From Cyanidioschyzon merolae (lineage: Eukaryota): 64,000 bases of DNA. Positions 20,889-61,452 of this stretch are shown here, piece by piece. The position numbers and the translations under genes were made by a program. The DNA is taken from assembly GCA_000091205.1 (NCBI GenBank), contig AP006501.2. One strand, written 5' to 3'. Position 1 is the stretch's first letter. Each line of letters starts with the position of its first letter. The notes below the pieces were generated by a model. The model did no database searches. It was not told the origin of the DNA and saw only the letters and a list, made by a program, of their open reading frames with translations.

Positions 20889-22168
20889 GTCGACGCGTGT
20901 ATCATCGCTTGGTATACGCTCTTGACGAGTACGGAAAGCTGCCGTCGATGGTCTCTTATGCTTACGCTTCTGTGTGATTCCGTCGGCAGCGACTCTGCTC
21001 GTTGCACACACAAGCGCACGCTGTCCTAGTCGATTGGGAATTTGCGGAACGCGATGCTGTCCACAATGAGACAAGAACCGGAACGAATATCCAGGATGCA
21101 GGAGAGGCTGAGCACTGCCGATCCGTCTACGCTCCATTCTTGAAAAGCGTTGACACACGAATCACTGGAAGAGATCGCTGCGATGAATCAGACTCCAGTC
21201 GAAGATGCTTTCTCATTCAAACAGAAGGGATGGGTGCGTCTAGTCGCATATCCCTTGAGAGGGATTTGCTGCGGTGGAATGCGGTTTTTTGTTAACGGCC
21301 ATGAAAAGAATAAAAAATTCGTCGTTCCAACGGTATCGCTCATTTTTTGGTATGAGAAGTTTGGTGCGCATTTAGCATGAGCTTTTGCACTGGCCATCAA
21401 GCGACGACTTCGAGTTCCTGTCCCCGTCAATCCAGCAGCGCGAATTGCTGCGCCCACATGCTGCCTTGGTACAGAGAGAACCCAAGCTTAAAGAATGCGT
21501 AATCGAACACGCTTCAGGCATGGAAAGGAGAATACTTGACGCTCGTGCGAATGAGTGTGTTCATGATTCCGGTTCTGACACGATGCCGTGCTCGAGAACA
21601 TCGCGAATTATCTTGACTCCTAAATCGTATTCTATTCCAGCTGAGAAGCGTCAAAAGAGTCACTCCGAACAGACTTCAGAGCATCCGAAACCTACGTATG
21701 CGTTCGTTAACTACTATCCGTATTCCGCCAATGTCCAGATTGTGTATCAGAAAAGTTTTGGGAAACATCGCAAGGCAGGTACACAGCGCGTCCTCCAATG
21801 TTTTGTATTCAAGAGGTACGTGTAATCTGTCCATATATTCTAATATTGGGTATAAAGGAACAGACCCTGACATACAGTCTGGAGAATTTGTCCGTATTAG
21901 TTACAAAATATACATCTATGTATCATGACATAGAGCCTGCAACGAGGGCGCCCATTTCCCCATACATCAGCGGTGTCGTCGATGACTCGCCGCTTCGCCA
22001 GCCGCGGACGCCGAACTCATTCTGCCAGCCTATTCAAGAGGGAAAGAAAGCCCAGTGTACTTCGGTTGCTGGAGAACCCACACGTGGCGTCAGCGGTAAC
22101 GCCCAAAGGCCTCTTTCGGAAGCAAGGGCATCCGCAATAAAATTCGCTTGCGGAAGAATTTCTTGCGC

Positions 22169-25855: not shown

Positions 25856-26773
25856 GGCAGTAGACTTCGATGGCGGACTGGTTTTTGTATGCATATGTGA
25901 TACGGTATATGTAAAACTGGGTATCGAACTTGCAGCGCTGATAAACGTGGCAGTAGACTTCGATGGCGGACTGGTTTGTATGCATATGTGATACGGTATA
26001 TGTAAAACTGGGTATCGAACTTGCAGCGCTGATAAACGTGGCAGTAGACTTCGATGGCGGACTGGTTTGTATGCATATGTGATACGGTGTGTGTAAAACT
26101 GGGTATCGAACTTGGAGCGCTGATAAACGTGGCAGTAGACTTCGATGGCGGACTGGTTTGTATGCATATGTGATACGGTGTATGTGAAACTGGGTATCGA
26201 ACTTGGAGCGCTGATAAACGTGGCAGTAGACTTCGATGGCGGACTGGTTTGTATGCATATGTGATACGGTGTATGTGAAACTGGGTATCGAACTTGGAGC
26301 GCTGATAAACGTGGCAGTAGACTTCGATGGCGGACTGGTTTGTATGCATATGTGATACGGTGTATGTGAAACTGGGTATCGAACTTGGAGCGCTGATAAA
26401 CGTGGCAGTAGACTTCGATGGCGGACTGGTTTGTATGCATATGTGATACGGTGTGTGTAAAACTGGGTATCGAACTTGGAGCGCTGATAAACGTGGCAGT
26501 AGACTTCGATGGCGGACTGGTTTGTATGCATATGTGATACGGTGTGTGTAAAACTGGGTATCGAACTTGCAGCGCTGATAAACGTGGCAGTAGACTTCGA
26601 TGGCGGACTGGTTTGTATGCATATGTGATACGGTGTATGTAAAACTGGGTATCGAACTTGCAGCGCTGATAAACGTGGCAGTAGACTTCGATGGCGGACT
26701 GGTTTGTATGCATATGTGATACGGTGTATGTGAAACTGGGTATCGAACTTGGAGCGCTGGTAAACGTAGAGAG
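25856..26773. repeat. Minisatellite of about 10 tandem 91-92-bp units
   Basis: The unit ggcagtagacttcgatggcggactggtttgtatgcatatgtgatacggtgtatgtgaaactgggtatcgaacttggagcgctgataaacgtg repeats with a period of 91-92 bp. The only variants are gtatatgt/gtgtgtgt/gtgtatgtg and cttgcagcg/cttggagcg. It begins 70 bp after the Bms1 stop. Confidence 0.9.
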
Positions 26774-32000: not shown

Positions 32001-32523
32001 CCAGATCTATGACGCTGTACTGCACGACCTCATCGTAGGCCGGGTCCTCCTCGCTCGGCCGCAGAATATCGATGCGAGGACCCTCGTCCAGATACACGAG
32101 GCGAACTGTCGCCGGCTCGCGCCCACATACAATCACGTACTCGCCTGCACCACCAAAAGCGACATAATTTGCCGGTACAGGGGTCCGACAGAGTACGGCG
32201 AGCGTCTCTCTCGTCGATACGGAAACAAGCGACACTTGTGATGCGTCATCTGCAACCACAAGAAAGCTGCAGCAGGGCGAAAGCGCCAGCGACCATATAG
32301 CGCTGACTGCACCGGGACCATTCGGTTCAGCTTCCCATACCCAGTCACACTCTTTCGTGACCGAGAGTCGATTCCCTGCGTCCGTCTTCACCGAACGTCC
32401 GAGCACTCTTCCGTCTGATCCGCCTGTGAATACAAACGTTACTGGAGAAGCACCAGCGCCGGGACTCTGAGCACCAACAGCCAGCGAACAAGTGCCAGGT
32501 GGGTGACAAACTATCGTTTCCAT
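29035..32523 (-). CDS. WD40 beta-propeller protein, possibly a Ctf4/AND-1/WDHD1-like replisome factor (family assignment tentative)
   Basis: A 1162-aa single ORF with ATG at 32523. The N-terminal region has WD-repeat-like blocks (SPDGQILAVGDRTGRVHFLE...). The middle has propeller-like repeats (SVHLYSFTGLITDSFHPGLNGSILTMVAS...). The C-terminus is a helical bundle (LDLASRLSSAAAFKVAVQIANRLKRAILAEKI). A poly-Asp run is encoded by (GAT)n at about 31080-31115. Confidence 0.45.
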   Translation of the reverse strand: METIVCHPPGTCSLAVGAQSPGAGASPVTFVFTGGSDGRVLGRSVKTDAGNRLSVTKECDWVWEAEPNGPGAVSAIWSLALSPCCSFLVVADDASQVSLVSVSTRETLAVLCRTPVPANYVAFGGAGEYVIVCGREPATVRLVYLDEGPRIDILRPSEEDPAYDEVVQYSVIDLAVDPLGCYFATVHEVPSGQGRATSTARTPAAMANVCLWSVDAQRVIGFGVGRIRHACCARFSPDGQILAVGDRTGRVHFLERDSWENAGYPVFDVQVWARAQCPAGSHVDKPISISTLAWDARSTTRLVVTAKLQEDNGDTIILYDLADAASRQLGVAEAEIRALACCPVSSVTYYLDLLGQLGVVTLPAERGTISSRGSERLSTSLLDNGTVDAHCGHHQSREGAHTGEASTRNAETPGSTTKLVRGTSLQVQTSNSLTFKEAASRPSQGGSTPSDDDSERVSSVSQREPAGETDDDDDDDGNDDSDVGDTTLSSRKRRRFATGLSHGRSSCCCDRTCQQPFQIGSTLDLGAKRRILQWNLTGCLTSLPAGSAVATSEEPARQIELEFSDVSKRSIRFPDRYGFQYGTLNAYGILLGAQSGQGGSDRPALIYYRPHESWSLQSDWIRFLPPQEDPIALCMSKFWVAVATSAQSVHLYSFTGLITDSFHPGLNGSILTMVASENLLCILSRSHGPDGAGEYMLLRIHQNGYVSECLVRGNLPICPAVRARPRAKRLQHLETSRLVWVGLTDTKRDTSSEAADSTSDASEDCALWIYFASGHLFTLRAWTFGCYRSATWNWTHGCHPLSSLQRGSMHLTWHLALTSERTRQALAEADGEEIFDPDRQWFYPLGVKNRVLHGIILPADATSPLPYPRSQLRQVPLERFPWPLAQDSQYSELEQAYLRTVASIRATRSALFDAIAFSRTTTVDGTQYQHSEHEMLEALAQKARELQRQADKTLLYLIEEACEKQRDRRVLDLASRLSSAAAFKVAVQIANRLKRAILAEKITQFAQIRIEELESSKSVVEQLLAAAHADAQANIASERAPSFLAQPSGNDDARRSRSTSDPEEAATGTESHPKRPAIDADAAPSADAPARPEETSSNTAVAAGGPSVRAAAALARKSAHLSARVAERLLQFTQSSPAEKGASRTASSRSLHSLAAWSSNST

Positions 32524-40547: not shown

Positions 40548-41876
40548 TCAGATAAACATGGAACATTGACCCATCCGCTATGTTCCTTTTCATATGATTT
40601 TTTCTGAGCGATCTTAGATGCACCATTGGCATTCGAGGTGCAGCAGTAGGTGCGTACGGATTCATACGTGGTTTCGGGGCTCCAGCTTGTCTATTCAGTG
40701 TGCCGCTATCGACTAGTTGGTGCTGGAATTTTTTAGTGCGCTGGAATCAAAACATTACGTGTTGCTATCGAATACGGGATCGCAACAGAATACATGTCAC
40801 TGACCAAATCGTATGTACAAGCGTCCGCTCTCCTCCTTTGCTACCGTTTCGTATGCTTCAGTCACACAATCTTCGTGTTTTCCATCTTTCCGTATCACAG
40901 AGGCTCGTGAGTGCGGCTACTCGTACCGCCAGATTGACGCGGATAATACCTCGACAACGCCCCGTAGCGGCCGCTTTGTAAGCGCATCCCCAACAGTCAC
41001 TGAACCTGTCACGTCAAATGATCCTGATCGATTGAACGGCAAATCCGTCTGCCTTCGTGGGCATCGACGGAACTGCATTCACGCTCAGCTTGATCCATCT
41101 CACCGGGCTATGCTGGCAGGGTCTCCCGTCTCTCCTGCTAGAATGTGAGAGCATCGTCGACTAGGGCTTGGGTTAGCGCAGCGATCGCTTCCGGGGCGGC
41201 GAGCGCCTCACCGCTTCTGACCGAGTCAGCGTCGACGCATCGAGAATGCTCGACATCGTGCACCGACCTGGACTTTGCTGCAGATACCTCTATTATCCTG
41301 GATACGATCGCGTTCCGCATACGCTCTATCGAACGGAGCAGCGTGCGCTTTCGAGTGCAGCGGACAGCGTACTTGCCAAGCGTCCGCTCAGGAGTGGAAA
41401 CAGCGGCGGGTTCCATGTCGAACCTCGTTTACTGCGAATAGCACGAACACGGGCAAAGCGTGTAGGCATCACGCGCGATAGGGCGACGCTCGGATGACGA
41501 GGGTGTTTGGCGAACACACGGGAACGACTACCGTTATCCAAGCGTCGCTGCTGCAGCGCACGAATCTATTCTGTATACGAGCAAGATGAGCGCGACGAGG
41601 GAAGCGAAGCTCGTAACGTCCGCCTGGACGTGACCTGCATTGAGCACAGCCAAAAGCAACGAGACCGACACATGAGCGCTGCACTCCATGTCCTTCGACG
41701 AAGGAGAACGCTGCTGGCGTGAGAGGAAACGGAGGCGTATGGAAACACGGAGAGAAGCGAAAGGACCGAGAGGCAGTCGCACCAGAAACCGTAAGGGCTG
41801 GTCTTGACGACGCCCGAGAACACACTTAAACTTTAGCTCGCATACCCGCATAAGAGGTGCATTTTCATACTACGCT
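40548..41876 (+). repeat. 1.33-kb dispersed repeat, copy A. It is the direct-repeat partner of 60131-61452.
   Basis: tcagataaacatggaacattgacccatccgctatgttcc ... cttaaactttagctcgcatacccgcataagaggtgcattttcatactacgct is shared with copy B, with only a handful of substitutions. Flanks diverge immediately outside. No convincing protein domain was found in any frame. Confidence 0.85.
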
Positions 41877-44042: not shown

Positions 44043-45326
44043 CTATGAAGCCGTTGGGCTCGACACGGGATCTTCGCTGGCGATGTCCTCGGCCTCGTCC
44101 TCGGAGTCTATTTCATCCGTCGCTGGCCAGATGCTCGGAGGCATATGCTTCATCTGGACAGAGGGAGCACCTTCTAGTTGGCGCAATTGTTCGATAACTT
44201 TGCTCTTCACCTTCTCTAGATAATCTCTCGAATTCTGGTTCTCCAGTTCACGCATTGGTTGAATATGGAGAGAATATTCTGGAGCGAAGTATTCCCAGTA
44301 ATCATTGTATGGAATCTGGGCGTCTACCGATATGCCTAGAAGCACCGAGGTCTCAAAGAGCCAGCAGCGGGCAACGTTTCGGATGTTGTAGCCACCACCG
44401 CCGAGGACCAGCATCGGGATTCGGAACGAACGAACAAAAGCCACCGCATTCGCATGTCCCTGTACCGTCAAGTTAAAGCACCCGAGTCGATCATGGGCCA
44501 GAGAATCCGCGCCACACTGCATCACGATTGCACCCGGTTGATATACTTCGATGACCTTGGTTATTATCGGCTCGAAAATGCGACTGAAACCTGCATCATC
44601 CATGCCGTCTTTCAGGGGCACGTTCACCGCGTATCCTTCACCGCGCCCGTAGCCGCGGTCCCATACATCTCCGGTTCCCGGGAAAAAGTTGTCTCCGTAT
44701 TTGTGGAAGGACACCGTGAGCACTCGATCTGTGGTGTAGAAGGCTTCTTCGACACCATCACCATGATGCACATCAATATCGATGTAGAGCACACGCGGGT
44801 AGAGACGCAGCAGTTCGAGAATTGCCAGTACGATATCGTTCACATAGCAGAAACCGCTCGCTTCACTTTTCTTGGCATGATGAAGACCACCTGCCCAGTT
44901 AATCGCAATATCACTGGTACCCGACATGAGTTTTCTGGCACCGTCGATACTACCGCCGGCAGATACGGCGCAAAAGTCCCAAAGACCGTCAAACAGCGGA
45001 CAGTCGCCGTGTTGTCGTCCGACGTTAAACCGCTGTAGCTGGTCCAAAACGTCGTCGGTTATGGTGTCCGGGGTTGTGTTTCGCAGGAACTCTATATAGT
45101 CGTGGGCGTGGAACTTTTCGCACTCCTCAGGGCTCGCTTTACGAGGCTTGTAGACGTCCATATGGCGATAGAGACCGTACGCGAGACATAGGTTGTGCGT
45201 GATGGCCATTCGGTGCGGTTTCATGGGATGATGCTGTCCATAATAGTAGCCCCCAACATCAAAGTCCATAAAATAGGCCACGCGCAAACGGTCGGTGGAA
45301 CCATACAGAGCCTGGCTCGACAGCAT
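44043..45326 (-). CDS. Class I histone deacetylase (Rpd3/HDAC1-2 type)
   Basis: [67 protein letters not shown]..., [63 protein letters not shown] and [15 protein letters not shown] are canonical class I HDAC blocks, including the catalytic HH and D.H.GDG motifs. The ATG is at 45326. The acidic Ser-rich tail is typical. Confidence 0.9.
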
Positions 45327-45449
45327 GAGTCCAGTGAAGATCGAGACGTTCGCTAGAGCACCGAAAACAAGCGAGGAACCTGAAGCGTCCGGGTGGCTTT
45401 GTATGCACGGATGCTCGAAGCCTAGCTAGCGCACAACTTGGCTGAGGAT

Positions 45450-48005
45450 GCGCACCCCTGGAAACAAACGTCTTTCAAAAGAAAAACGTTGCTGCCAGTG
45501 GTACAGTAGTGGCGGCAACCGCACCCTAGCCAAGAAGTCTCCAACTGATGTGCAGACGCCTTCCAGCTTTTTTCGACTGGCCACCCACTACTGCTTCCAA
45601 CTTTTTCCCATATAATTCCACATTCAGAGATGGTTCCATAAAGTTTTCTCTTGTCAGCTCTGGGGGTCTATTCTCCATCAACGCATATTTCCTTATATTG
45701 CTGGCAGCATTAAAGTCTCGGTTCATAAACTCCATACGTTTCGTGCCGTTGGGAGTTGTACTCACTAATGCAAGTAGTCCACGAACTTTCGCGCTCCTTT
45801 CCATTTGCTCTTCCGTCAGCGTACCGTACTTTCTTATAACCTCAGGACTCCGCTGGCACTTTTCCATCTCGACCCTCTGAAGTGTACACCCTAGCTCATG
45901 GTGTGTATAGGACGTTCGAAACTCATCTACAGGTATCGTGACGATACTCCGTGCACACTCTTTGTACGTTCTTGTCGTTGGAGCTGGCGTAGTTCCTTGC
46001 TTGGGTCTTCCGTCACCCTGCTCCGTACGCTACTACGAGTCTCTGACTTTCATCCTCCTTCAAGGCGCTCAGCAGATTGAAAAAGTTCGCGAATGCACGC
46101 TGCTTCCCACAATACAAATTCATTCGCAGTCGAACCCACCGGGGCTTGGTCTACTCTTTCCACAGCGCATACCAGTGAGCAATACGAAGTTCCATGAATT
46201 TCCGAAGAGCCTGAATGTCCGCTCGTCGGCTCGTCACCTCGCTCATAGCTTCCAGATGCTCTTTCATTCTTTCATTCCATGCAGCAATTTTCTTCCTCGC
46301 ATTCATTATACCGGATTCTCGATAGTATCTCGCTCTCGAGAACCTCAAAAGACGCATGTATTTCTGACGTAAGTTACCATCAGTACCATCTTCCGCACGC
46401 TGGGGTACTGCGATGGTTATGTTATTTGTGTTTCCGGGATCCGCGCTGACGACAAAGTCGTTATCTTGCACCTCCTGCGTCGCAGGATCCGCCTCCTTCT
46501 CATCTTCATGCATCGTCGCGCCTGCATCCTTCGTCTCGGGCGCAGCCGAGGGAGGGACTGGACGATCTGTCTTCAACCGCCGATAGTGTATACACAAGGC
46601 TACTCCATCGGTTTCGATCATCTCAGTGAATACCTTTTGTTTGCTGACTTTGAGACGTTTGAAATCGAAGATATTCTTCCAGTATGTCTGCCGGTTTTCA
46701 CCGGAGAATTCCTTCCTGCTAACATCGAAATCAGGACTGATCTCGCTCGTGATGCTGCAAAGACGCCAGAGTCGATAGTCACAAAATGTGACTTGATATT
46801 GTACATTGGAACCACGTTGAAGCGCTTCCCCATTAGGAACGCCTTCCGTCTCTCCCACTCTTCATTTTTTCCTCATTCAGCCTCATCTCTGCCGTGCGTT
46901 CGAGTTCGCGGTCCAAAAACACGAAATACCTCAAGATGAGGAGGTAGTATCTTTCCTTATCTTTTCCAACTCTGATATCTTGTCTGCTGGATTAACCAGC
47001 CCCAGTACCGCACGGTGCTCTTGTATAACCGCACGGATTACAGAAGCTTCATTCGTGCACTAATTCGACGCCTTCTTGTCAACGAACTCGATCTCATCTT
47101 CATGATGGCGATCGTTCGTGATGCAATTGATAATCGCCCATTTTCCTTCGCGAGACAGACCCGGGTGGAGTGCAACCACGGCGCGTATCATGAAACGTTC
47201 GAAGTTCGCTGTCAAATGGTTCTTCAGATTCGTGAGGTACTTCATGGCCCCGTAGCTGTAAATATCCCAGTCACCCTTGTACCGAGTACCCTCGAAGCTG
47301 TAGAAGGAATGTTTTTCGTGGAGGGCATGCACTAGCACATTTTCCCTCCGCGCTTTCTCTGTACCAAGCATCAGGTGAGGAATAAAGGTCTTGTCGAAGA
47401 ACTCGCCCGGAATCTCGACCTTTTCCATGTGCGTCCCGTCGCGATACATCTCTCTCACCAAATGCATCAGTCCTGACGACGCCTTGACAATATTCTTCGA
47501 GTACGACGCAACACGTTTTTCGATAGCTTCTCGCAACTTTTCCCTGTACGGATCCTTGATCTGTCCAAGAAGAAAGGTTTTCACCACCATCTCGTCGCAC
47601 AGTTGTCTTTCTTGCCGCTTTCGACGTAGGGCCTCCCCCGTTTTTGCGTTTTCTTCTTATCCTGCTCTTCTGGAATCGGCACTGTTTTTTGTTTTTTTTC
47701 TGGCACCCGGCGACACTGGGCCTCCAGGATCGTAGACTTGCTTTTTCATAGCTTTCCTTTTTTAGTTTTTTTTGAGAAAGAACGCTCTTTGAACTCTTCT
47801 GTTATATACTGCGAAAAAAACACTTGATTAGACTTGTTCGAAGTTTGAAACACAATTGAAATGAAAAACTGTACTTGGCTATGAAGTTAACGAAAATACA
47901 ACTTTTACATTAGATCTACATGCTAGAGATCAGGATCACGTTCCCCTTCAACAACGGCATGTGCGTAGCGTCTCATGCCTGCCTGATCTCCGAGGTGCAC
48001 TCACC
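45450..48005 (-). mobile_element. TnpB-like (Fanzor-type) element copy 2. It forms the left arm of a 2.5-kb inverted repeat.
   Basis: It is the reverse complement of 52281-54800 at near identity. Coding remnants are 47060..47590 (the N-terminal piece, ending KKASN then TAG), 46151..46858 (the middle piece with [15 protein letters not shown]) and 45526..45867 (C-terminal MEFMNRDFNAASNIRKYAL...). A Lys/Arg-rich putative NLS segment lies further 5'. Confidence 0.75.
45526..47590 (-). pseudogene. Fanzor/TnpB-like nuclease remnant (copy 2). It has in-frame stops and lacks one 20-aa internal repeat present in copies 1 and 3.
   Basis: The middle piece reads ...[51 protein letters not shown]..., which has a single [11 protein letters not shown] unit compared with two in copy 3. 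Confidence 0.65.
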
Positions 48006-48559
48006 GAGCGCGATGCAAACTAGTCACAAATTATTTATTAAAGAACAACTATCTTAAAAGCCCCATACAGCACGCGCGCCTATGGGGTCTAGTTTTTCCG
48101 AAGAAGCTCTGAAAGTGGGTTAAACCGGGGTGCTTGGGCGACGACGAAGGAAGCCCACGCCAGGGACCATGACCGCAACGAACGGAGGGGCGGAGGCAGT
48201 GGCAGCAGAAAATATTGACGAGAGTTCTGAGTAGTTATCCGCTGCTCCCGAAACAACGCTGCAGGTTCCGGCGCAAATCCTGGATCCATCCTCGAACTCG
48301 GGCTACGTTTTACCTCCCACCTTGAGCACCTACCTCAACTTTGGAAACACTCTCGGCGGATACTTCGGAAGGCGGCTATCGATATGCTCGTGGTCGAAGC
48401 TGGAATAAGCGACTTACCCGCCTATGTGTTTGGGGAACGGATACGTAACCGCTGAACGGGTGCTTTGCAGACTGTTCCCAATGGTTGAGGGTAGCTTCAC
48501 GCGTCCGGCAAGATAAAGTTCGCATTCGAATCGACCTTGACTAATGTACTTCTGATTCT

Positions 48560-51500
48560 ACGCTAGCGCTGCGGCAGACACTCAATGAACGACTGGAATG
48601 CAGGAGGCGCTGGTGGCATGTGCTCTCACACACCTTGTGGAGGGTGCATCTAAATGGACGACGCATCTCTCGAGTACCGCAGCGTTACTCCTATACCCTT
48701 ATGCGCTACGACTCGATAGGTTTCGCATCATGGAATATTTGCGGTGTGGCCTCGATACTAGACGACGAGATATCGAATTACCAGTACAGTAATGAAGAAC
48801 TGATACAAGTCGAGGACTGTACAATAGGAAAAGAGACCCAACCAGACACGGAGAAGGAGACACAGAAACCTCATGATCCACCTAGATGCAAAATAACCAG
48901 AGAAAGTAGCTCAGGAAAGAGCCCGAAGAAGAAAAAGACCAGCAAGAAATAAACAGAAGAATAGAAAAAAGAACTCCCAAATGAGCCCATCACAAGGTAT
49001 CCCCCGAGAGGGCACCCCAGCTGGAACTCAAGAAAGCCGTCGCCAAACCCAGGCACCTACTCACAGCGCTGAAGATCCGAAAAGCCGTGCATACAAATTT
49101 TTTGACCAATTGACACGCGAGTTTGTAGATGGGAATCAGAAGATTGCCAGAGAGCTGGGACTGCTTGCACCAGAACGCAACAGTTGCAAACCTCGGTACC
49201 TGAAACGACGTACCAAAACTCGGATTGATGAATGCTACCGAGTCTATAAGATCGTCAACCGCACCGCCATACACGCCAACGCCGGAGACAAAGAAGCGAA
49301 GGCAGCGCTACCGGCGCTACAGGCGCAACATGAAGAAGCTATCAAAAGAAAGAAGAAACTTTCCAGAGAAGACAAACGAGAGGATCGAAACCGCAGAATC
49401 GCCTCCCTGGCGAAATCTATGCTGGAGAGCACCAACGAAGATGAGATCTGGCGCTACATTCGATCGAGACTCGACCCACCAAAAAAGTGCTTGGGGCTCA
49501 CACCAACTCTGTATAAGGAAGAGCTGAGGACGGAGCGTGCCTCAGTGAATGAGGCCTGGACAGACCACTGGACAGAGCTGCATGAAGAAGCAACTGGACA
49601 CTGCTAAGACCCAATCTATTGGCACCAATATGCTGCAGAACTACCGCGCCTCGACCCGGTACCGGAATGGAACGACCCAATCTTCTGGCCTGAATCTGTC
49701 CGGACTCTGCTATGCTCAAGCAACCGCAAAACACCTGGCTTTGACGGTATCCCTACGGAGTGGATGAAACTGGTGATCCCAAAAGACGGGACAACAGGGA
49801 CACCATCGATACCAGATGAACCTGACAGAATCTTAGGCAAGCGCCTTCTGGAGCTCATCCAACGCATGTTCGAAGAAGCGTACATCCCAGATGTATGGAG
49901 GACTGCCGAGGTCGTATCGATCCTCAAAAAGGACTCCGAACCCCACAGACATGAATATCTACCGGACTATGCGCCTCATCCCGTCAATCATGAAGCTACT
50001 TTGCGCCAACCTCACGAACCGGACTCAGAGGGGCCTTGAGGAACGCAACTTCCTCGCCCCAGAGCAGGCTGGATTCCGGAGCCGCGAGGAGTGCATGAGC
50101 CATGACCTGACCTTCATTGAAGTGGTGCAACGTCGCTCCATTAGCTGCCAACAACCAACTTACGTATGCTTCATCGACTTTCAAAAGGCCTTTGACACGG
50201 TCCCGCACGAGGCTCCATTTCTGAAGATGGAACGTGCCAGAGTCTCCGGAAAGTGCTTAGCGTTCTTCCGTGCGCTCTATGCAGACTCGTGGATGTGCAC
50301 CCGACTGGGCGACTGCTCAAGAACCCCTTCGATAAGAATCCGCCGTGGACTGCGACAGGGCGACCGCGCATCCCCGCGCCTTTTCAACATCTTCATCAAC
50401 GATCTGCTGAACAACTGCAGACAATACGGGCTTCAGGTGTCGTGGATAGACTGTGGAGAACCCGGTGAGGAGCGCCTACATAGAAACCGCCTCGCAGGCC
50501 TTCTACTTGCGGACGATGTCGTGCTGTTGGCACCCGCCCCGGAAACGCTTGCGGCTAGCATGCAACAAGTCAGCGCCTGGGCCGATCGCTGGGTTATGAA
50601 CATAGGAGCATCGAAGTGCGGCGCCATGGTCATCCTTGGAGACTCGCAGCGCATTCGCAATCGCTCGTGGCGGTTGCAGAATCAGGAAATTCCGATCGTG
50701 GAAAAATATCGCTACCTGGGGGTCTGTCTCACGCCGACGCTCGACGAAAAGGCACAAGTCGACGAGATGATCGCCAAGATGCATAGACGTACAGAGATCG
50801 CACGTCCATTCTTATCCGACCCCTCTATCTGCATAGCAATCCGTACGAGGGCACTAAGGATGTGTATCATCCAGCCTTCGACCTGGGGTGCTGAATGGTG
50901 CGGCATGAAGCACACAAATGCCTCGCGTCTGCATACAGCCGCCAACAGGGCAATGCGACTCGTTGGTGTTGGATGCTCAGTGCAGCGCAGAGCGACCAAC
51001 CCGCTGGCACTCGGACTTGAACTCCAAATAGCCTCGATAGAAGCGATAGCAGCAGGCTGCCGGGCATGTATACGGGCCAAAGGGCCCACTATGCGCACCT
51101 CCTTGAGTCGGATTTTCATGCAGACCCCAACGCACCGCTAGAACACTTGGATGAAATCAGCGCAGATTTGGCTGAAGCGCCTCTTACGCGAAAACACGCT
51201 ACCCAATCGTTCCCCAGGAATGTAGAAGACTTCAGACGCCTCAAGCGAACGGTCCAAACAACAATATGGGAAGGTAGACACGGTACCAGTCGCGCTAGTA
51301 ACGCCGGCTTGACTCTATATCGGAACTACAACCTAGCATACACATGCAAGTACTGGTGGGAGGCGCTGGAATTCCCGGGACTTGCTCGCGGTACCCTGTG
51401 GCTTGCCAAAATCCGTGTTAGTGGCATCTGGCTACCAGCACCGGCTCTAAGCCGTACGGGAACACTGGAACCGCACTGGGAGTCACACTGTCCCTGCTAT

Positions 51501-52276
51501 CGAGACGAAATCCCCGAGACGCTGACATATTTAAGCTTACAGTGCCCGCGCTCGAAGCAGGAGCGCAGCGAGCTCCTTGAAGGACAGCAGGAGCTCGGCA
51601 TCACCGTGATAGTCGAAGGCCGGACACTCACTCTGAGTGTAGCACTGGCAACTGATGGTCCGCTAACGGAGCCTCAGCGCTCATGAGTGGCGAAGAAACT
51701 CACATGCTACCTTCTAGGCAGCAGGTCCAACGAATCGGATGAGCACACGGGTTTAGTGCTCTTTGTGCCTACCCACTGTGGTGGGTGTCAAGCACAAACC
51801 CGCATTGCCAACCGACAACACATTCAATGCATGATCACGAAGGAAAGAGGCGGCTCGCACGATATATCCTAACAGCCAAGTTTCTCCAGCGTGTCGTGCA
51901 GCGAAGACAAGCCTGCATCCGCAGACTGTCCGAGCACAAACTGACGACGAGACCCGATTCTACTTCGGTTGAACCACGCCTCGAGCCGACGCGCTCTGGG
52001 GTATAGAAAAGCTGCTCTAGCTCGATGAACTATCTGCTCCAGCATTTAAGGTCCAAAGGCGGATACGGAAAGGCAGGTACTAGGCACACACGATAGGACG
52101 TATGAAACGACCAGAGTATCCGAGGTGAAGTATAGGTACTGTAGCTTGGAGGCAGGCTGTTTGATGGATACCTAACCGCGCACTGAAAAAAATAACATAA
52201 AAAAGTAAGAAAAGAAAAAGCGCACAATTGGAAAATGCTGGCACAAGTAAACGTCTTGTCCATGAAAAAAAGAATC
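48560..52276 (+). mobile_element. Degenerate non-LTR (LINE) retrotransposon with APE-like, RT and CCHC remnants and a 3' A-rich end
   Basis: 48620..48952 carries IGFASWNICGVAS, an AP-endonuclease-like start. 49764..50039 and 49891..51141 carry RT blocks (VWRTAEVVSILKK..., YRTMRLIPSIMKLL, CFIDFQKAFDTVPHE, GLRQGDRASPRLFNIFIND, LLADDVVLLA). 51066..51686 has a CCHC-like knuckle (CPCYRDEIPETLTYLSLQCP). Frameshifts separate the pieces. The 3' end (...catgaaaaaaag) abuts arm B at 52281. The 5' boundary is approximate. Confidence 0.75.
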
Positions 52277-52280
52277 GCGC

Positions 52281-54800
52281 TCGGTGAGTGCACCTCGGAG
52301 ATCAGGCAGGCATGAGACAAGACGCGCGTGCCGTTTTTGAAGGGAAACGCGATCCTGATCAGTAGCGTGTTGTTCTGCTGTAAAAGTCGGATTCCCGTTC
52401 AGATCATAGCAAAGTATAGTTTTCATTTCAATTGTGTTTCAAACTTCGAACAAGTCTAATCAAGTGTTTTTTTCGCAGTATATAACAGAAGAGTTCAAAG
52501 AGCGTTCTTTCTCAAAAAAACTAAAAAAGGAAAGCTATGAAAAAGCAAGTCTACGATCCTGGAGGCCCAGTGTCGCCGACTGCCAGAAAAAAAACAAAAA
52601 ACAGTGCCGATTCCAGAAGAGCAGGATAAGAAGAAAACGCAAAAACGGGGGAGGCCCTACGTCGAAAGCGGCAAGAAAGACAACTGTGCGACGAGATGGT
52701 GGTGAAAACCTTTCTTCTTGGACAGATCAAGGATCCGTACAGGGAAAAGTTGCGAGAAGCTATCGAAAAACGTGTTGCGTCGTACTCGAAGAATATTGTC
52801 AAGGCGTCGTCAGGACTGATGCATTTGGTGAGAGAGATGTATCGCGACGGGACGCACATGGAAAAGGTCGAGATTCCGGGCGAGTTCTTCGACAAGACCT
52901 TTATTCCTCACCTGATGCTTGGTACAGAGAAAGCGCGGAGGGAAAATGTGCTAGTGCATGCCCTCCACGAAAAACATTCCTTCTACAGCTTCGAGGGTAC
53001 TCGGTACAAGGGTGACTGGGATATTTACAGCTATGGGGCGATGAAGTACCTCGCGAACCTGAAGAACCATTTGACAGCGAACTTCGAACGTTTCATGATA
53101 CGCACCGTGGTTGCACTCTACCCGGGTCTGTCTCGCGAAGGAAAATGGGCGATTATCAATTGCATCACGAACGATCGCCATCATGAAGATGAGATCGAGT
53201 TCGTTGACAAGAAGGCGTCGAATTAGTGCACGAATGAAGCTTCTGTAATCCGTGCGGTTATACAAGAGCACCGTGCGGTACTGGGGCTGGTTAATCCAGC
53301 AGACAAGATATCAGAGTTGGAAAAGATAAGGAAAGATACTACCTCCTCATCTTGAGGTATTTCGTGTTTTTGGACCGCGAACTCGAACGCACGGCAGAGA
53401 TGAGGCTGAATGAGGAAAAAATGAAGAGTGGGAGAGACGGAAGGCGTTCCTAATGGGGAAGCGCTTCAACGTGGTTCCAATGTACAATATCAAGTCACAT
53501 TTTGTGACTATCGACTCTGGCGTCTTTGCAGCATCACGAGCGAGATCAGTCCTGATTTCGATGTTAGCAGGAAGGAATTCTCCGGTGAAAACCGGCAGAC
53601 ATACTGGAAGAATATCTTCGATTTCAAACGTCTCAAAGTCAGCAAACAAAAGGTATTCACTGAGATGATCGAAACCGATGGAGTAGCCTTGTGTATACAC
53701 TATCGGCGGTTGAAGACAGATCGTCCAGTCCCTCCCTCGGCTGCGCCCGAGACGAAGGATGCAGATGAGCAGAAGGCGGATCCTGAGACGCAGGAGGTGC
53801 AAGATAACGACCTTGTCGTTGGCGCGACGATGCATGAAGATGAGAAGGAGGCGGATCCTGCGACGCAGGAGGTGCAAGATAACGACTTTGTCGTCAGCGC
53901 GGATCCCGGAAACACAAATAACATAACCATCGCAGTACCCCAGCGTGCGGAAGATGGTACTGATGGTAACTTACGTCAGAAATACATGCGTCTTTTGAGG
54001 TTCTCGAGAGCGAGATACTATCGAGAATCCGGTATAATGAATGCGAGGAAGAAAATTGCTGCATGGAATGAAAGAATGAAAGAGCATCTGGAAGCTATGA
54101 GCGAGGTGACGAGCCGACGAGCGGACATTCAGGCTCTTCGGAAATTCATGGAACTTCGTATTGCTCACTGGTATGCGCTGTGGAAAGAGTAGACCAAGCC
54201 CCGGTGGGTTCGACTGCGAATGAATTTGTATTGTGGGAAGCAGCGTGCATTCGCGAACTTTTTCAATCTGCTGAGCGCCTTGAAGGAGGATGAAAGTCAG
54301 AGACTCGTAGTAGCGTACGGAGCAGGGTGACGGAAGACCCAAGCAAGGAACTACGCCAGCTCCAACGACAAGAACGTACAAAGAGTGTGCACGGAGTATC
54401 GTCACGATACCTGTAGATGAGTTTCGAACGTCCTATACACACCATGAGCTAGGGTGTACACTTCAGAGGGTCGAGATGGAAAAGTGCCAGCGGAGTCCTG
54501 AGGTTATAAGAAAGTACGGTACGCTGACGGAAGAGCAAATGGAAAGGAGCGCGAAAGTTCGTGGACTACTTGCATTAGTGAGTACAACTCCCAACGGCAC
54601 GAAACGTATGGAGTTTATGAACCGAGATTTTAATGCCCCTATCAATATAAGGAAATGAGCGGTGCTGGAGGAAAGACCCCCAGAGTAGACAATAGAAAAC
54701 CTTTTTGGACAACCTCTCAAAGTCGAACTATATGAGATAAAGTTGGAACCAGTATTAGGTGGCCGATCCAAAAAGGCTGGAAGGCGTCTGCACATCAGCT
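52281..54800 (+). mobile_element. TnpB-like (Fanzor-type) element copy 3. It forms the right arm of the inverted repeat.
   Basis: Coding remnants: 52434..52690 is a K/R-rich NLS-like stretch in another frame. 52696..53226 is the N-terminal piece. 53428..54192 is the middle piece (...[27 protein letters not shown]...RIAHWYALWKE). A continuation lies in the same frame after a TAG (TKPRWVRLRMNLYCGKQRAFANFFNLLSALKEDESQRLVVAYGAG). 54476..54658 reads MEKCQRSPEVIRKYGTLTEEQMERSAKVRGLLALVSTTPNGTKRMEFMNRDFNAPINIRK. A conserved 3' noncoding tail of about 140 bp follows. Confidence 0.75.
52560..54658 (+). pseudogene. Fanzor/TnpB-like RuvC nuclease remnant (copy 3)
   Basis: The domain order matches TnpB/Fanzor. 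There is an N-terminal region, a RuvC-I-like hydrophobic-D-P-G motif, then a F..F..L..K.E....VV block, then a Cys-containing region, then the RuvC-III-like NRDFNA.INI. In-frame stops occur after KKASN, after TTSSS (four stops within 25 codons), after ALWKE and after YGAG. Confidence 0.65.
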
Positions 54801-54953
54801 GGAGGCGTTTCGTCTAGGGCGCGTTCGCCGGCACGACTGTACACGGCCGCCGGCTGTGCGTCACGTGGAGCCGCGAGCGGCGGGCTTCTACCAAGTGCCG
54901 CTTGTACCAAACGCACTTGCACCTCGTGTGGACACAGACGCATACCTGAGTGC

Positions 54954-57875
54954 ATGGCCGATTCTGGAGATGAAACGGAGTGGGAACTTGCTGCCGAGAA
55001 GTTTGTAGCGACTGTTGCACCGAAAGAAACTACTCCGTCTCGGGGGAGGCCCTCGAGTCGGGCGACGCGCTCGCCGTTGCGCGAGGCTCCGCCCGAGGCC
55101 GCGCCCAACGCGGGAGCCGGCACTGCAGGCCGACCTGGACGCAGTGCGGGCAGCTCGGGGCCCTCGGAACCCACCGCAGACACCACCACAGGCACCACAC
55201 GCGTCGCTCGAGGTGCCCAACCGAAACCTGCAGGCAAGCCGAGCGGCGTGGGTGGAAACAGAGGGAGCGACGTGGCTGCGGCCCCGTCTCAGGTTATTCA
55301 GGTTTTGCGTTTCAGCAGTGATGCGTCGCTCACAGCAACCGTTCGGGGGAGTCAAGCAAACCAGCAGGCGCTCTGGGATCGGGCGCGATCGGCGTTCGAG
55401 TCGGCGCTGCGTCGGAACGCAACACGACTGGAGCTCGATGCGCTGGCAGCGGCCCTGCAGACTGTAGGCGTCGACATCTCTCTTGGTCGAAACGCAGGCA
55501 CACGCGGCGGCGGACCTGCAACGAACGGGCCCACTGACGGCAGCGGTGGACGGCGTTCGGGAGCCGCTGCGGGCGGCACGGCGTCGCGAACTCCGCAGCC
55601 AGCGCTCACGCGAGGCCGCAACGCCTGGACCCCCTCGTTTCTGACCAAAACTGCGGATACGTCCGCTACAGAGGGGGAGAATCTGGTCAATTCCTCTCGA
55701 CGAAAAGCAAAAGCTATACTGAACAAACTCGTACCGGAGAAGTTCGTCACGCTAGCGCAGCAGATTCTTGATATGCCGCTCCATCATTACGACGTACTGG
55801 AAGCGGTGATTTCAGAAATCTTTGATAAAGCGCTTGCGGAGCCGTATTTTTGTGGAGTCTACGCAGATCTGTGTGAAGTTTTGAACCGCGCGCTTCCGAG
55901 CATCGCGATCGAGAGTGCTTCGGGGACCAAACAAACCAACTTTCGCAAAATGCTTCTCGCGCGCTGCCAAGCTGAGTTTGTGCAGCGCGCCCTAGCCTCG
56001 GAAGAGCGCGCAACAGACGAGCAGGAACTTGAGGTTTGCGCCCACAACCGACGCCGCACGCTAGGAAATACAATTTTCGTGGGTGAGCTCTTCAAGCGGC
56101 ATCTGCTGAGCGAAAAAATCATTCATGAGTGTGTACAGATGCTGCTGAAAGAGGGCGAGAACGAAGATAGCATCGAAACGCTTGCCAAGTTGCTCTCCGT
56201 CGCCGGCAGCAGCATGGATCGCCCTGAGGCTCGGTCCTACATGGACGCCTACTTTACCAAGATCGAAGAAATGGCAAACAACGCACAAATTCGAGCTCGT
56301 TATCGGTTTATGCTCAAGGATTGCGTTGAGCTGCGTAAGCAGAAATGGAAGCCGCGACGAGCCCAAGAACGGCCAGCGACACTGGATGAGATTCACGGGA
56401 AAAAGTCCGGCCGTGCCGCTCGGCAAGCGAGTCAGTCGCTGGCACGCAAAGCTGCTCAGCTGCGCTTCACGGGAGCTGATGCAGAGGCGCCCAAGCCGGA
56501 GGCGGAATCCACAGTTCCAGCAGGGCAAGTGTCCGCGTCTGCCACTGTCCAGGGTCGTGTTGAGAACGCCCGTAACCAGAACGTTGCCGGCGAGACGGTC
56601 ACGGACGCTGCACACGCCAAGTCGGAGTCGGGACCGGTCCCCGATCGGACTGTCGTTTGGACCGAAAACCCTGAACTATTGCGGACGTATATTCGTGGTA
56701 TCATTGAAGACTACGTGGTGAATCCGTATCCGGCAGAGGTACAGGTGGCGCTCACCGAGTCCGGACTTGCCGCACAGCCTGACCTGCTGGCTTTGGCTGG
56801 CGTTCAGGAACTCTTCTCCATGGTCTGCAGTGCGCGCGGGCATGAACGGCAGCCGCTTGTTCGATCCTTTGGAGATGCCTTCCAGCATGTACTTTCTAGG
56901 GAGAAGCTGCTCGAGGCTCTTGTATCGATTACGTCCAATTTGCTTACCTTCGAAGACGAGCTTGATATGCCTACAGCAGGCAAAGTTCTCGGCGAGTTTC
57001 TCGGGACGTTATGCACTAGCCACTGCGCTACGTTCTTACACGACGCTGCTGATATTCATACAGTACTGGCAGCGGTTCCGCCTAATAGACAGGCATCCGT
57101 GCTGCGTTCCTTCTTGGAAACGCTCTTCCGACAGTATCCTTCAGATATGCGAGAGCGCTTCGGCGCTTCCCTGCGAGCACTACGTCCGCTTTTCGTGTCG
57201 CTCCCGCAAACGGAACAGCGCGAACTCGAAGAGCTACTTGCAAAATATGAACTGCTTGAGCTCGTTCCCGAATGGCAGCTCCGACGCCAGCTCCAATACT
57301 ATCTGGAACCTGGAAAGGAGCGTATCGCAGATGCAGCAGACTGGTTGCGAAGCTTCCTGCCCAGAGTGCGGGAAACGCTACGCTCCGAGGACGCAACAGC
57401 ATCCACTGCAAAGTCCAGTCTGAACGAATGGTACGCCTTTTGTCGATTCACTGCGGACCATATCCTATCAACTTATGTCATGGAAGCGCAATCGAGTAGT
57501 ACGATGGATATCATGCGGCGACTACGCCTGATGGTGCCGCTTCTTCGTGAAACAGCCGGAAACATGCCCGCGACCGATGAAACCGACGACGACGACGACG
57601 ACAGTGACCCCGCGGAAGACAAGGAGTGGCGTCAAGCCCAAGTGGCTTTTGCAGTGCAAGCAGGTTGTTATCGTTTGGACTTTCCCACTGATCTCATAAG
57701 CGGCATGTTCCAGGTGCTGTACGACGCGGATGTGATCTCAGAGGAGGCATTCGATCGCTGGCGGGAAGATGTACACGATACGACACCAGGAAAGCTCAAG
57801 GCGCTATTTCATGTGAATGCTTTTCTGAATTGGCTCAAGGAGACTGATGAAGAACCGGAGAAATCCGATGTGTAA
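54954..57875 (+). CDS. eIF4G-like translation initiation factor (MIF4G, MA3-like middle and C-terminal W2 domains)
   Basis: The MIF4G block reads RRKAKAILNKLVPEKFVTLAQQILDM...LEAVISEIFDKALAEPYFCGVYADLCEVL...NTIFVGELFKRHLLSEKIIHECVQMLL. The C-terminal W2-like block reads ISEEAFDRWREDVHDTTPGKLKALFHVNAFLNWLKE, followed by an acidic tail. The track ORF begins at 54759 inside the Fanzor 3' tail. The first ATG, MADSGDETEWELAAEKF at 54954, is the more plausible start. Confidence 0.75.
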   Translation: MADSGDETEWELAAEKFVATVAPKETTPSRGRPSSRATRSPLREAPPEAAPNAGAGTAGRPGRSAGSSGPSEPTADTTTGTTRVARGAQPKPAGKPSGVGGNRGSDVAAAPSQVIQVLRFSSDASLTATVRGSQANQQALWDRARSAFESALRRNATRLELDALAAALQTVGVDISLGRNAGTRGGGPATNGPTDGSGGRRSGAAAGGTASRTPQPALTRGRNAWTPSFLTKTADTSATEGENLVNSSRRKAKAILNKLVPEKFVTLAQQILDMPLHHYDVLEAVISEIFDKALAEPYFCGVYADLCEVLNRALPSIAIESASGTKQTNFRKMLLARCQAEFVQRALASEERATDEQELEVCAHNRRRTLGNTIFVGELFKRHLLSEKIIHECVQMLLKEGENEDSIETLAKLLSVAGSSMDRPEARSYMDAYFTKIEEMANNAQIRARYRFMLKDCVELRKQKWKPRRAQERPATLDEIHGKKSGRAARQASQSLARKAAQLRFTGADAEAPKPEAESTVPAGQVSASATVQGRVENARNQNVAGETVTDAAHAKSESGPVPDRTVVWTENPELLRTYIRGIIEDYVVNPYPAEVQVALTESGLAAQPDLLALAGVQELFSMVCSARGHERQPLVRSFGDAFQHVLSREKLLEALVSITSNLLTFEDELDMPTAGKVLGEFLGTLCTSHCATFLHDAADIHTVLAAVPPNRQASVLRSFLETLFRQYPSDMRERFGASLRALRPLFVSLPQTEQRELEELLAKYELLELVPEWQLRRQLQYYLEPGKERIADAADWLRSFLPRVRETLRSEDATASTAKSSLNEWYAFCRFTADHILSTYVMEAQSSSTMDIMRRLRLMVPLLRETAGNMPATDETDDDDDDSDPAEDKEWRQAQVAFAVQAGCYRLDFPTDLISGMFQVLYDADVISEEAFDRWREDVHDTTPGKLKALFHVNAFLNWLKETDEEPEKSDV

Positions 57876-59599: not shown

Positions 59600-60130
59600 G
59601 TTTGCAGGCTAGCACCAGTGTGTCCCTGGGTCGCTCGAAACGAGAACCAACGCACCGTGCGTGTGTTCGTCGAACGAGCAGTCTCTGGTGGTAGCGACGA
59701 GTGAATGCGGAGTGTTCAAGAGAGTTCCTCACGATCAGCAGAGTGACTCGAGAGGCACGTACCAAAGAATAGAGTTAATCGGTTCCCTGGCCTGTCTACG
59801 AGGGGACGCAAAGGCGTCCTTGGGGTTGTTCTACGAAAACGACTCGTTCCACCTGCGCAGCGCACTTGAATGGACTCCACCAGTGGTGAAACTTTGACAC
59901 CTGTAAACCAACCTGGGTCCAACGGGCCTCTCTTCGCGCTATCACCGTACCCATCGAAAAGCAACGCTCAACAGTGGTGCGCAGTACATTGCAAGTGGCT
60001 GTCAGTCGAATGCTCTGGAGAGAAACATCTCCTCGTTCCGTCGGGATTGTGCGGTGCGGTGCGGTGCGGTGCGCGTGGAGCGGCGTCACGATAGCAGGAA
60101 GGAGGATTATGTTGACGTTTAGCTCAGATA

Positions 60131-61452
60131 AACATGGAACATTGACCCATCCGCTATGTTCCTTTTCATATGATTTTTTCTGAGCGATCTTAGATGCACC
60201 ATTGGCATTCGAGGTGCAGCAGTAGGTGCGTACGGATTCATACGTGGTTTCGGGGCTCCAGCTTGTCTATTCAGTGTGCCGCTATCGACTAGTTGGTGCT
60301 GGAATTTTTTAGTGCGCTGGAATCAAAACATTACGTGTTGCTATCGAATACGGGATCGCAACAGAATACATGTCACTGACCAAATCGTATGTACAAGCGT
60401 CCGCTCTCCTCCTTTGCTACCGTTTCGTATGCTTCAGTCACGCAATCTTCGTGTTTTCCATTTTTCCGTATCACAGAGGCTCGTGAGTGCGGCTACTCGT
60501 ACCGCCAGATTGACGCGGATAATACCTCGACAACGCCCCGTAGCGGCCGCTTTGTAAGCGCATCCCCAACAGTCACTGAACCTGTCACGTCAAATGATCC
60601 TGATCGATTGAACGGCAAATCCGTCTGCCTTCGTGGGCATCGACGGAACTGCATTCACGCTCAGCTTGATCCATCTCACCGGGCTATGCTGGCAGGGTCT
60701 CCCGTCTCTCCTGCTAGAATGTGAGAGCATCGTCGACTAGGGCTTGGGTTAGCGCAGCGATCGCTTCCGGGGCGGCGAGCGCCTCACCGCTTCTGACCGA
60801 GTCAGCGTCGACGGATCGAGAATGCTCGACATTGTGCACCGACCTGGACTTTGCTGCAGATACCTCTATTATCCTGGATACGATCGCGTTCCGCATACGC
60901 TCTATCGAACGGAGCAGCGTGCGCTTTCGAGTGCAGCGGACAGCGTACTTGCCAAGCGTCCGCTCAGGAGTGGAAACAGCGGCGGGTTCCATGTCGAACC
61001 TCGTTTACTGCGAATAGCACGTACACGGGCAAAGCGTGTAGGCATCACGCGCGATAGGGCGACGCTCGGATGACGAGGGTGTTTGGCGAACACACGGGAA
61101 CGACTACCGTTATCCAAGCGTCGCTGCTGCAGCGCACGAATCTATTCTGTATATGAGCAAGATGAGCGCGACGAGGGAAGCGAAGCTCGTAACGTCCGCC
61201 TGTACGTGACCTGCAGTGAGCACAGCCAAAAGCAACGAGACCGACACATGAGCGCTGCACTCCATGTCCTTCGACGAAGGAGAACGCGGCTGGCGTGAGA
61301 GGAAACGGAGGCATATGGAAACACGGAGAGAAGCGAAAGGACCGAGAGGCAGTCGCACCAGAAACCGTAAGGGCTGGTCTTGACGACGCCCGAGAACACA
61401 CTTAAACTTTAGCTCGCATACCCGCATAAGAGGTGCATTTTCATACTACGCT
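60131..61452 (+). repeat. 1.33-kb dispersed repeat, copy B
   Basis: See copy A (40548-41876). More than 99% identical, in the same orientation, about 19.6 kb apart. Confidence 0.85.

Follow-up and report, generated by a model that had tools for sequence, protein, structure and literature searches.

We analysed a 64-kb stretch of the genome of the red alga Cyanidioschyzon merolae (contig AP006501.2; 64,000 nucleotides, hereafter the window), in which self-BLAST identified three copies of one element of about 2.5 kb: copy A at 52274-54854 on the plus strand, copy B at 45469-48014 on the minus strand, and copy C at 6198-8855, also on the minus strand. The stretch from 52274 to 54854 is almost certainly a decayed copy of CMe-1A, the Fanzor1 element of C. 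merolae, with copies B and C as two further members of the same family. Pairwise identity is 94.7% between A and B and 93.6% between A and C. Copies A and B stand head-to-head on the two sides of a degenerate retrotransposon. Across copy A, the open reading frames (ORFs) listed for 51800-55300 are short and strung over all three forward frames from about 52430 to about 54800, and the GC content is 0.46-0.51, as against 0.56-0.63 in the flanks.

Identity with CMe-1A and state of the reading frame

CMe-1A was described by Bao and Jurka in 2013 (Mob DNA 4:12; PMC3627910), in the paper that defined Fanzor1 and Fanzor2, and is the sole Fanzor1 family listed there for C. merolae. It comprises about 150 copies with approximately 80% identity to a consensus of about 3 kb, some of which still have an intact protein; it shows no terminal inverted repeats (TIRs), its target-site duplications (TSDs) could not be determined, and its authors left the element unclassified (PMC3627910). 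The consensus in the additional files is 3169 bp long and the CMe-1 protein has 734 aa; over its 5' 635 bp, the consensus shares 95% identity with the repeat TE-N2_CMe (PMC3627910).

By blastn, the Fanzor-specific part of all three window copies is about 84-89% identical to this consensus. Copy A aligns over consensus 648-2195 (window 52276-53826, 84.5%) and 2122-3147 (53828-54854, 88.6%), copy B over consensus 648-3169 (48012-45469, 85.2% over 2549 bp), and copy C over consensus 1-499 (8855-8359, 75%), 1084-2195 (8354-7246, 84%), and 2122-3169 (7244-6198, 89%). The resulting divergence of about 15% is in line with the figure of about 80% identity given by the authors, and the window protein, once repaired as described below, is 78.1% identical to the published CMe-1 protein over 707 aa. 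The host species and the 3' terminus (...TTTTGAAAGGCG) are the same, and TIRs and findable TSDs are likewise absent. What sets the window copies apart is their extent and their state. Copies A and B begin exactly at consensus 648, without the 647 bp upstream that make up the TE-N2_CMe part; they are therefore core-only variants of the CMe-1A family. The 635 bp derived from TE-N2_CMe are present in copy C at 75% identity, as a head at 8855-8359 followed by consensus 1084-3169 at 8354-6198, and the internal deletion of consensus 500-1083 in this copy has removed the start of the ORF. At the 3' end, copy A is about 22 bp short and has lost the terminal hairpin, and copy B is complete. All three copies are frameshifted pseudogenes.

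The suggestion in the initial annotation that this might be an uncatalogued lineage does not hold, since the copies align to a consensus from the founding Fanzor paper and the family is not new, CMe-1A having been published in 2013. One further paper was found on Fanzor and Cyanidioschyzon together, and it concerns the green alga Auxenochlorella. Because CMe-1A has been described since 2013 and the window copies are dead, they add little to the biology, and the residual novelty, which concerns a clade without a zinc finger and the mobility of the core, is modest.

The reading frame was followed by frameshift-aware protein-to-DNA alignment against P0001, the closest near-intact relative (70% identical to the repaired window protein), combined with three-frame translation. 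The repaired protein was stitched from the three-copy consensus translated in three frames; it starts MVVKTF and has 707 aa, longer than the 600 aa or so first estimated. In copy A, the pseudo-ORF occupies 52537-54817 on the plus strand; it opens with an ATG (MKKQVYDPGG) and closes with the family's TAG stop at 54815-54817. Its interruptions are five frameshifts (52647, 53321, 53419, 53520, and 54340), at least one more upstream of the start of P0001, between 52537 and about 52604, and five premature stops (codons ending at 53226, 54192, 54330, 54658, and 54688). Copy B carries five frameshifts and three premature stops, and copy C four of each. Four of the frameshifts are common to all three copies and a fifth to A and B; the stop at P0001 position 580 is found in all three, two more are found in A and B, and copies A and C have private ones. 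Every frameshift is a loss of 1 nt relative to the uninterrupted relative, with the homologous peptide resuming in the next frame. The window copies are thus pseudogenes, unable to make a nuclease, as had been judged probable from their in-frame stops alone. The shared frameshifts and the common stop indicate that they descend from an already broken template, and they therefore multiplied passively, via the machinery of another element or by DNA duplication.

Fanzor1 homology and the zinc-finger site

The RuvC signature of Fanzors is complete in the family, with DPG, an 'alternative' Glu in DEFRTS, and NRD. The RuvC-I catalytic Asp (codon GAT, 53902-53904, plus strand) was placed by the family alignment and by alignment to SpuFz1; it lies in SADPGN (53896-53913), at the end of a hydrophobic run within the ORF 53428-54192 of copy A. 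In our alignment of 86 members (A3), the Asp and Gly of DPG are invariant and the Pro is kept in at least 90%. The RuvC-II Glu (codon GAG, 54419-54421, plus strand) lies in VDEFRTS, at the 'alternative' position typical of Fanzors, and is invariant in the alignment (E593); VDEFRTS aligns to the SpuFz1 motif DEYKTS, which contains E541, and has the [TS][TS]-type pattern that goes with this position. The RuvC-III Asp (codon GAT, 54626-54628, plus strand) was placed by the family alignment in NRDFNA, within NRDFNA(P/A) at 54620-54640, where R661 is invariant and D662 is kept in at least 90% of members. On 8gkh_P, a chain in which SpuFz1 is fused to maltose-binding protein, the three residues align to Asp777, Glu935, and Asp1000, which are D383, E541, and D606 of SpuFz1, and the spacings of 158 and 65 residues are those of D383/E541/D606. 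These are the catalytic residues of SpuFz1 (PMC11423790). Fanzors can be told from ordinary TnpB by the DPG and by a Glu that precedes the zinc-finger position by six residues (PMC10711439).

Several of these features had been picked out in the initial annotation. The hydrophobic run ending in DPG was correctly placed at the RuvC-I Asp, and the F..F..L..K.E.....VV block is real, being present in copy A as FANFFNLLSALKEDESQRLVVAYGAG (FANFFN..LVVAYGAG). The C-terminal RuvC-III motif exists as well, although the form quoted, MNRDFNAAINIRKYAL, is that of copy C and of the three-copy consensus, whereas copy A reads MNRDFNAPINIRK and then a stop. Two other stretches had been read out of frame. The NLS-like (nuclear localization signal) stretch KKNKKQCRFQKSRIRRKRK is in the wrong frame, but the true N-terminus, as judged from relatives (MKKQVYDPGGPVSPTARKK.. 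/ ..VPIPEEQDKKKTQK / GEALRRKRQERQLCDEMVVKTF, with the frameshift at 52647 and one more upstream), is still rich in Lys and Arg. The zinc-finger region is indeed atypical, but the VCTEYRHDTC quoted from it is not in frame; the true frame there reads GTTPAPTTRTYKECARSIVTIPVDEFRTSYTHHELGCTLQRVEMEKC (...KECARSIVTIPVDEFRTSYTHHELGCTLQRVEMEKC...) and contains the RuvC-II motif VDEFRTS, which had been overlooked.

Directly before the RuvC-I strand, and running into it, lies a 75-bp (25-aa) tandem repeat of the form DE(Q/K)...(L/F)VV, present in two units (53748-53901, plus strand; 87% by self-BLAST). The number of units varies, with two in copies A and C, four in P0001, and five in the relative P0034; in copy B, the second unit is mostly deleted (57-bp gap). 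In P0001 this repeat linker corresponds to residues 381-469, the only stretch predicted to be disordered in the model described below, with a predicted local distance difference test score (pLDDT) below 50.

A database search returned 45 close relatives, all in JGI metagenomes, with DUF8286 (PF26935) as the sole precomputed family; no mention of DUF8286 was found in the literature searched. An exhaustive profile search gave 3,234 cluster representatives (50% identity), mostly of about 600 aa, 412 of them at E<=1e-30. When run against the PDB, the profile of 86 full-length members matched PpFz1 (9cf0, E=1.4e-23), SpuFz1 (8gkh, 7.5e-18), and GtFz1 (9cer, 1.2e-12), the Fanzor1 proteins of Parasitella parasitica, Spizellomyces punctatus, and Guillardia theta, and nothing else. 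An AlphaFold2 model of P0001, built from a 91-sequence alignment, has a pLDDT of 84.7 and a predicted TM-score (pTM) of 0.82; the fold evidence is thus that of a homologue, not of the broken window copies. In a Foldseek search of the PDB with this model, the top seven matches were Fanzor1 structures (E=1.6e-15 to 6.7e-13, target TM <=0.73), followed by Cas12 variants (Cas12o, E=0.015) and the Fanzor2 structure 9b0l (E=0.031, TM 0.16-0.24). The ancestral gene encoded a Fanzor1 protein of about 734 aa, whose fold, as modelled on P0001, has the REC/WED/RuvC/TNB arrangement seen in SpuFz1, PpFz1, and GtFz1. The element is also multicopy and transposon-borne in a eukaryotic genome, with three copies in 64 kb and 71 related loci in metagenomes that carry Cyanidioschyzon-type host genes.

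Neither outcome named at the outset as one that would refute the Fanzor reading was obtained, and that reading stands: the P0001 model matches Fanzor1, with the D/E/D triad aligning to SpuFz1, and the 86-member family profile matches Fanzor1 structures, the repaired protein itself staying below threshold in Pfam. The assignment to a Fanzor-class element of a eukaryote is thus borne out by the PDB profile matches, the P0001 fold, and the C. merolae genes alongside, and a Fanzor1 element with a sub-threshold Pfam signal had been correctly recognised from the raw sequence alone.

Compared with SpuFz1 (8GKH), PpFz1 (9CF0), and GtFz1 (9CER), the CMe-1 family shares the bilobed fold, the aligned triad, a length of 600-750 aa, and a Lys/Arg-rich N-terminus. 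It differs from them in having only 12-15% sequence identity, in the variable 25-aa tandem repeat before RuvC-I and, in the Cyanidioschyzon members, in an extra helical insert (EKCQRSPE..EEQMERRAK). Relative to SpuFz1 and ISDra2 TnpB, the CCCC zinc finger of the TNB domain is replaced in CMe-1 by a Cys-poor segment. Prokaryotic TnpB proteins (IS200/IS605 and IS607; ISDra2) likewise have a split RuvC with D-E-D, and their elements have end hairpins and no TIRs or TSDs. In contrast to them, CMe-1 has DPG in place of D-hydrophobic-G, a Glu at the alternative position, and no zinc finger; it lacks a TnpA partner and a significant Pfam OrfB match; and its protein, found in a eukaryotic host, is far larger and has an enlarged REC lobe. 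Outside the Cyanidioschyzon group, the nearest relative is P0062, a protein of 699 aa from a brine metagenome (L076, 435-3600); immediately upstream of its gene is a Tc1/mariner-type transposase gene (DDE_3, HTH_Tnp_Tc3_2). This setting matches the Mariner-borne Fanzor1 elements described in 2013 (PMC3627910).

By analogy with the characterised SpuFz1, GtFz1, and PpFz1 (PMC10432273, PMC11423790), the protein of intact members would work with a non-coding omegaRNA, binding a transcript made from the element's 3' end. In its 3' portion, this RNA would carry flank-derived sequence that directs the RuvC site to cut matching DNA beside a short target-adjacent motif (TAM), and such cutting would help the element to be retained or to spread. 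The one observation in the family that touches on an omegaRNA is a terminal hairpin with two compensatory exchanges and weak z-scores, discussed in the next section.

Several results weigh against the reading of the element as a Fanzor1 nuclease gene working in this manner. The Fanzor1 homology is visible only through a deep profile or through structure. In Pfam, the repaired protein gives only a sub-threshold match to PF07282 (E=0.051; 14.2 bits, the cut-off being 26.3) on NRDFNAAINI, and five homologues behave in the same way; phmmer with the repaired protein and a 12-member profile both found no relevant relative in the PDB. The C4 zinc finger (CxxC...CxxC) is absent between RuvC-II and RuvC-III, the segment reading YTHHELGCTLQRVEMEKCQRS...VRGLLALVSTT, and nuclease activity in a clade that lacks it is putative. 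On the RNA side, RNAalifold found essentially no consensus structure in 46 aligned 3' ends (4 pairs, -0.58 kcal/mol), the 3' end is no more conserved than the ORF (0.66 in the 3' untranslated region, 0.75-0.78 at position 3 of the last codons), and Rfam gave no match within 45300-55000 at E<=1. No report of RNA-guided cleavage by any red-algal Fanzor was found in the literature searched.

The missing zinc finger is a property of the family. Of the 86 members in alignment A3, 76 have no C-x(2-5)-C at this site, four distant members keep two pairs, and the family consensus reads EFRTS........L..V........VRGLLWC.ST....KFVNRD. The motif by which Bao and Jurka defined the proteins includes a CCCC zinc finger (PMC3627910), and the structures of SpuFz1 and ISDra2 TnpB contain one too. 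The C4 zinc finger is likewise missing from the published consensus of CMe-1, a family that its authors filed under Fanzor1; the motif is therefore typical of Fanzor1 but not universal. Despite the missing zinc finger, the TNB region of P0001 is modelled confidently. No mention of Fanzor1 proteins without a zinc finger was found in the Fanzor literature searched; they may have been noticed elsewhere.

In 69 aligned copies, over consensus 2131-2940, identity is 0.84-0.90 at codon positions 1 and 2 and 0.70-0.79 at position 3; the difference is slight in the N-terminal half. This pattern points to past selection on the nuclease half. Decay dominates the CMe-1 family: among 72 Cyanidioschyzon-type loci from metagenomes (the 71 of the scan, and L001), L001 alone has a near-full ORF. 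This ORF has 722 aa from its ATG, without the basic N-terminus and the last 37 residues, and is flanked by orthologues of two adjacent C. merolae genes. We consider it possible, though doubtful, that CMe-1 belongs to a very large Fanzor1 sub-clade whose members have lost the zinc finger but keep the D/E/D triad under selection or, as a second possibility, that the core forms a discrete module. If such proteins were active, the zinc finger would be dispensable for an RNA-guided RuvC nuclease, and the clade would be relevant to compact-editor engineering and to the requirements of the TNB domain.

Element ends and routes of movement

The 3' boundary was defined from 53 aligned ends (...GAAAGGCG) and coincides with the end of the published consensus. 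In copy B, a hairpin CGTTTTTC-TTTT-GAAAGACG (45469-45488, minus strand) ends at the element boundary, with an RNAfold energy of -10.1 kcal/mol and z=-2.1. Two variants of this 3' hairpin, CGUCGUUCGA-CUU-UCGAACGGCG and CGUUUUUC-UUUU-GAAAGGCG, differ by a G-C to U-A exchange, and another exchange is found in L012; the z-scores are weak overall, with a mean of -0.6 and 24% below -1.5. At the left end, the first core bases of copy A may form a hairpin GCGCTC-GGT-GAGTGC (52277-52291, plus strand), as read from the sequence. Its equivalents in other subfamilies would be GCGCTC-GGT-GAGCGC, with one T-A to G-C exchange, or GCGCG-GTCGATA-CGCGC.

Just past the published 3' end, a sequence beginning TTTGTTTCCAGGGGTG is common to copy B (45440-45468), L040, and L069; many other copies have a TTTGTT-like or GGTGGTG-like sequence there. 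This shared sequence could represent either a longer element in some subfamilies or a target preference. Among the 16 elements with defined ends, the strings shared between the two flanks were no longer than 7 (null 95th percentile, 8), and no target-site duplication above the null was thus found; no poly(A) or A-rich tail was found at the Fanzor 3' ends.

The 5' side is interchangeable. The core, consensus 648-3169, stands behind at least four unrelated upstream sequences, joined at about one position. In the window, the partner of copies A and B is a degenerate non-long-terminal-repeat retrotransposon resembling a long interspersed nuclear element (LINE), at 48015-52273 on the plus strand. 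Its reverse transcriptase ORF (49891-51141) matches RVT_1 at E=2.7e-22, a remnant near 48700 resembles the start of an apurinic/apyrimidinic endonuclease (..GFASWNICGV..), and its A-rich 3' tail ends at 52272. Copies B and A are inverted relative to each other, one on each side of the LINE, and each starts exactly at consensus 648. Related LINE copies occur in 25 of the retrieved metagenomic loci. The junction between the LINE 3' tail and the core, ...CATGAAAAAAAGA followed by ATCGCGCTCGGTG, recurs in copy A and in five loci (L016, L019, L022, L025, and L033), where the LINE part is about 200 bp or about 860 bp long, internally deleted, or full length, reflecting different 5' truncations. Fanzor fragments that are themselves 5'-truncated, with intact 3' ends, start at consensus 1976, 2093, 2236, 2737, and 3073. 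The inverted arrangement of copies B and A and the recurrent junction suggest a site-specific association or co-mobilisation of the LINE and the Fanzor core.

It is therefore worth asking whether the neighbouring LINE spreads the CMe-1 core, by read-through (3' transduction) or trans-mobilisation and not by DNA transposition. The recurrent junction with its variable LINE truncation in copy A and the five loci, the 5'-truncated Fanzor fragments at several loci, the lack of TIRs, and the fact that dead copies with shared frameshifts still multiplied would all fit such a route. We nevertheless think it unlikely, as the Fanzor 3' end lacks the poly(A) or A-rich tail, there is no target-site duplication above the null, and the core also abuts the LINE in other ways: head-to-head at the LINE 5' end (copy B, L049, and L006), in reverse at an internal LINE position (L001), or behind unrelated heads such as TE-N2_CMe. 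The varied junctions fit nested insertion and segmental duplication in islands of transposable elements (TEs) at least equally well.

The ends of the core lend themselves to a different proposal, in which an HUH-type enzyme would recognise both hairpins and move the 2.5-kb core in the form of single-stranded DNA, in the manner of IS200/IS605 or Helitrons. A GC-rich hairpin at the first core bases, a hairpin ending at the exact last base with its compensatory variants, and the absence of both TIRs and TSDs would agree with this; moreover, IS200/IS605 elements are the ancestral carriers of TnpB, and Fanzor1 genes of Chlamydomonas are found on Helitrons (PMC3627910). However, neither the window nor the 71 related loci showed an HUH, Rep, or helicase gene, the terminal hairpins have weak z-scores overall, the sequence upstream of the left end has no conserved target motif, and Bao and Jurka did not assign the element to any class (PMC3627910). 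We accordingly regard this route as quite improbable. LINE-assisted copying, HUH-type movement on the hairpins, and nesting or duplication in TE islands are all possible modes of movement for the core. If the core is a discrete module that joins different 5' heads at one fixed position, this would hint at a transposition route that has not yet been described for Fanzor elements. The movement of CMe-1, with its constant 3' end, interchangeable 5' heads, hairpins, and LINE link, may merit specialist attention.

Host setting, excluded alternatives, and neighbouring repeats

The stop-containing segments of the window copies might in principle be spliced out or bypassed by programmed frameshifting, leaving live genes, and splicing across them had been raised as something to check. 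The catalytic codons are all still there, and the three successive -1 shifts at 53321, 53419, and 53520 total 3 nt, which brings the frame back after about 200 bp. However, the homologous protein sequence runs through every break, where the copies contain no DNA beyond that of the intact consensus; each copy has three to five point stops, some of them private to one copy; and in copy C the ORF start is gone. As no sequence is inserted at the breaks, there is no intron to remove, and the entire C. merolae genome has only about 27 introns. Introns and recoding were thus ruled out as an explanation for the stops, the breaks being point stops and single-nucleotide losses by comparison with an uninterrupted consensus, and we find live genes very hard to credit.

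The host setting is that of C. merolae 10D. A histone deacetylase (HDAC) ORF at 44043-45326 on the minus strand is an exact match to BAM82711.1, and a Ctf4-like ORF at 29035-32523, also on the minus strand, is an exact match to BAM82707.1; both proteins are from C. merolae 10D and both map to a 1.28-Mb chromosome of this strain. Domains found in the neighbouring ORFs are MIF4G/W2 (eIF4G-like), histone deacetylase, Ctf4/Mcl1, and CDP-diglyceride synthase. The HDAC and eIF4G-like genes are divergent, and the cluster of copy B, LINE, and copy A fills the intergenic space between them; copy C is located between two other divergent ORFs. That the similarity is to prokaryotic TnpB or Fanzor2, through contamination or a recent bacterial or viral transfer, is next to impossible: a weak Pfam match, to Cas12f1-like_TNB, would speak for it, but the flanks are C. 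merolae nuclear genes, the DPG and alternative Glu are a Fanzor signature, and the PDB matches of the profile are to Fanzor1 only, with Fanzor2 far behind in the Foldseek search.

Three other repeats were observed in the window. A 185-bp repeat at 16129-16313 is about 82% identical to 52090-52271, directly upstream of copy A, and 81% identical in reverse orientation to CMe-1A consensus 60-150, in the TE-N2_CMe part; it is probably a solo TE-N2_CMe fragment. A direct repeat of 1329 bp occurs at 40548-41876 and 60124-61452, with the two copies 19.6 kb apart and 99.2% identical. It contains no ORF longer than about 118 aa and was not found in the Fanzor loci retrieved from metagenomes. It could be a recently duplicated segment or a non-coding repeat. 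Finally, about ten tandem units of 91 bp, with 96-98% mutual identity, lie at 25856-26767, directly 3' of an ORF of 1212 aa at 22148-25786.

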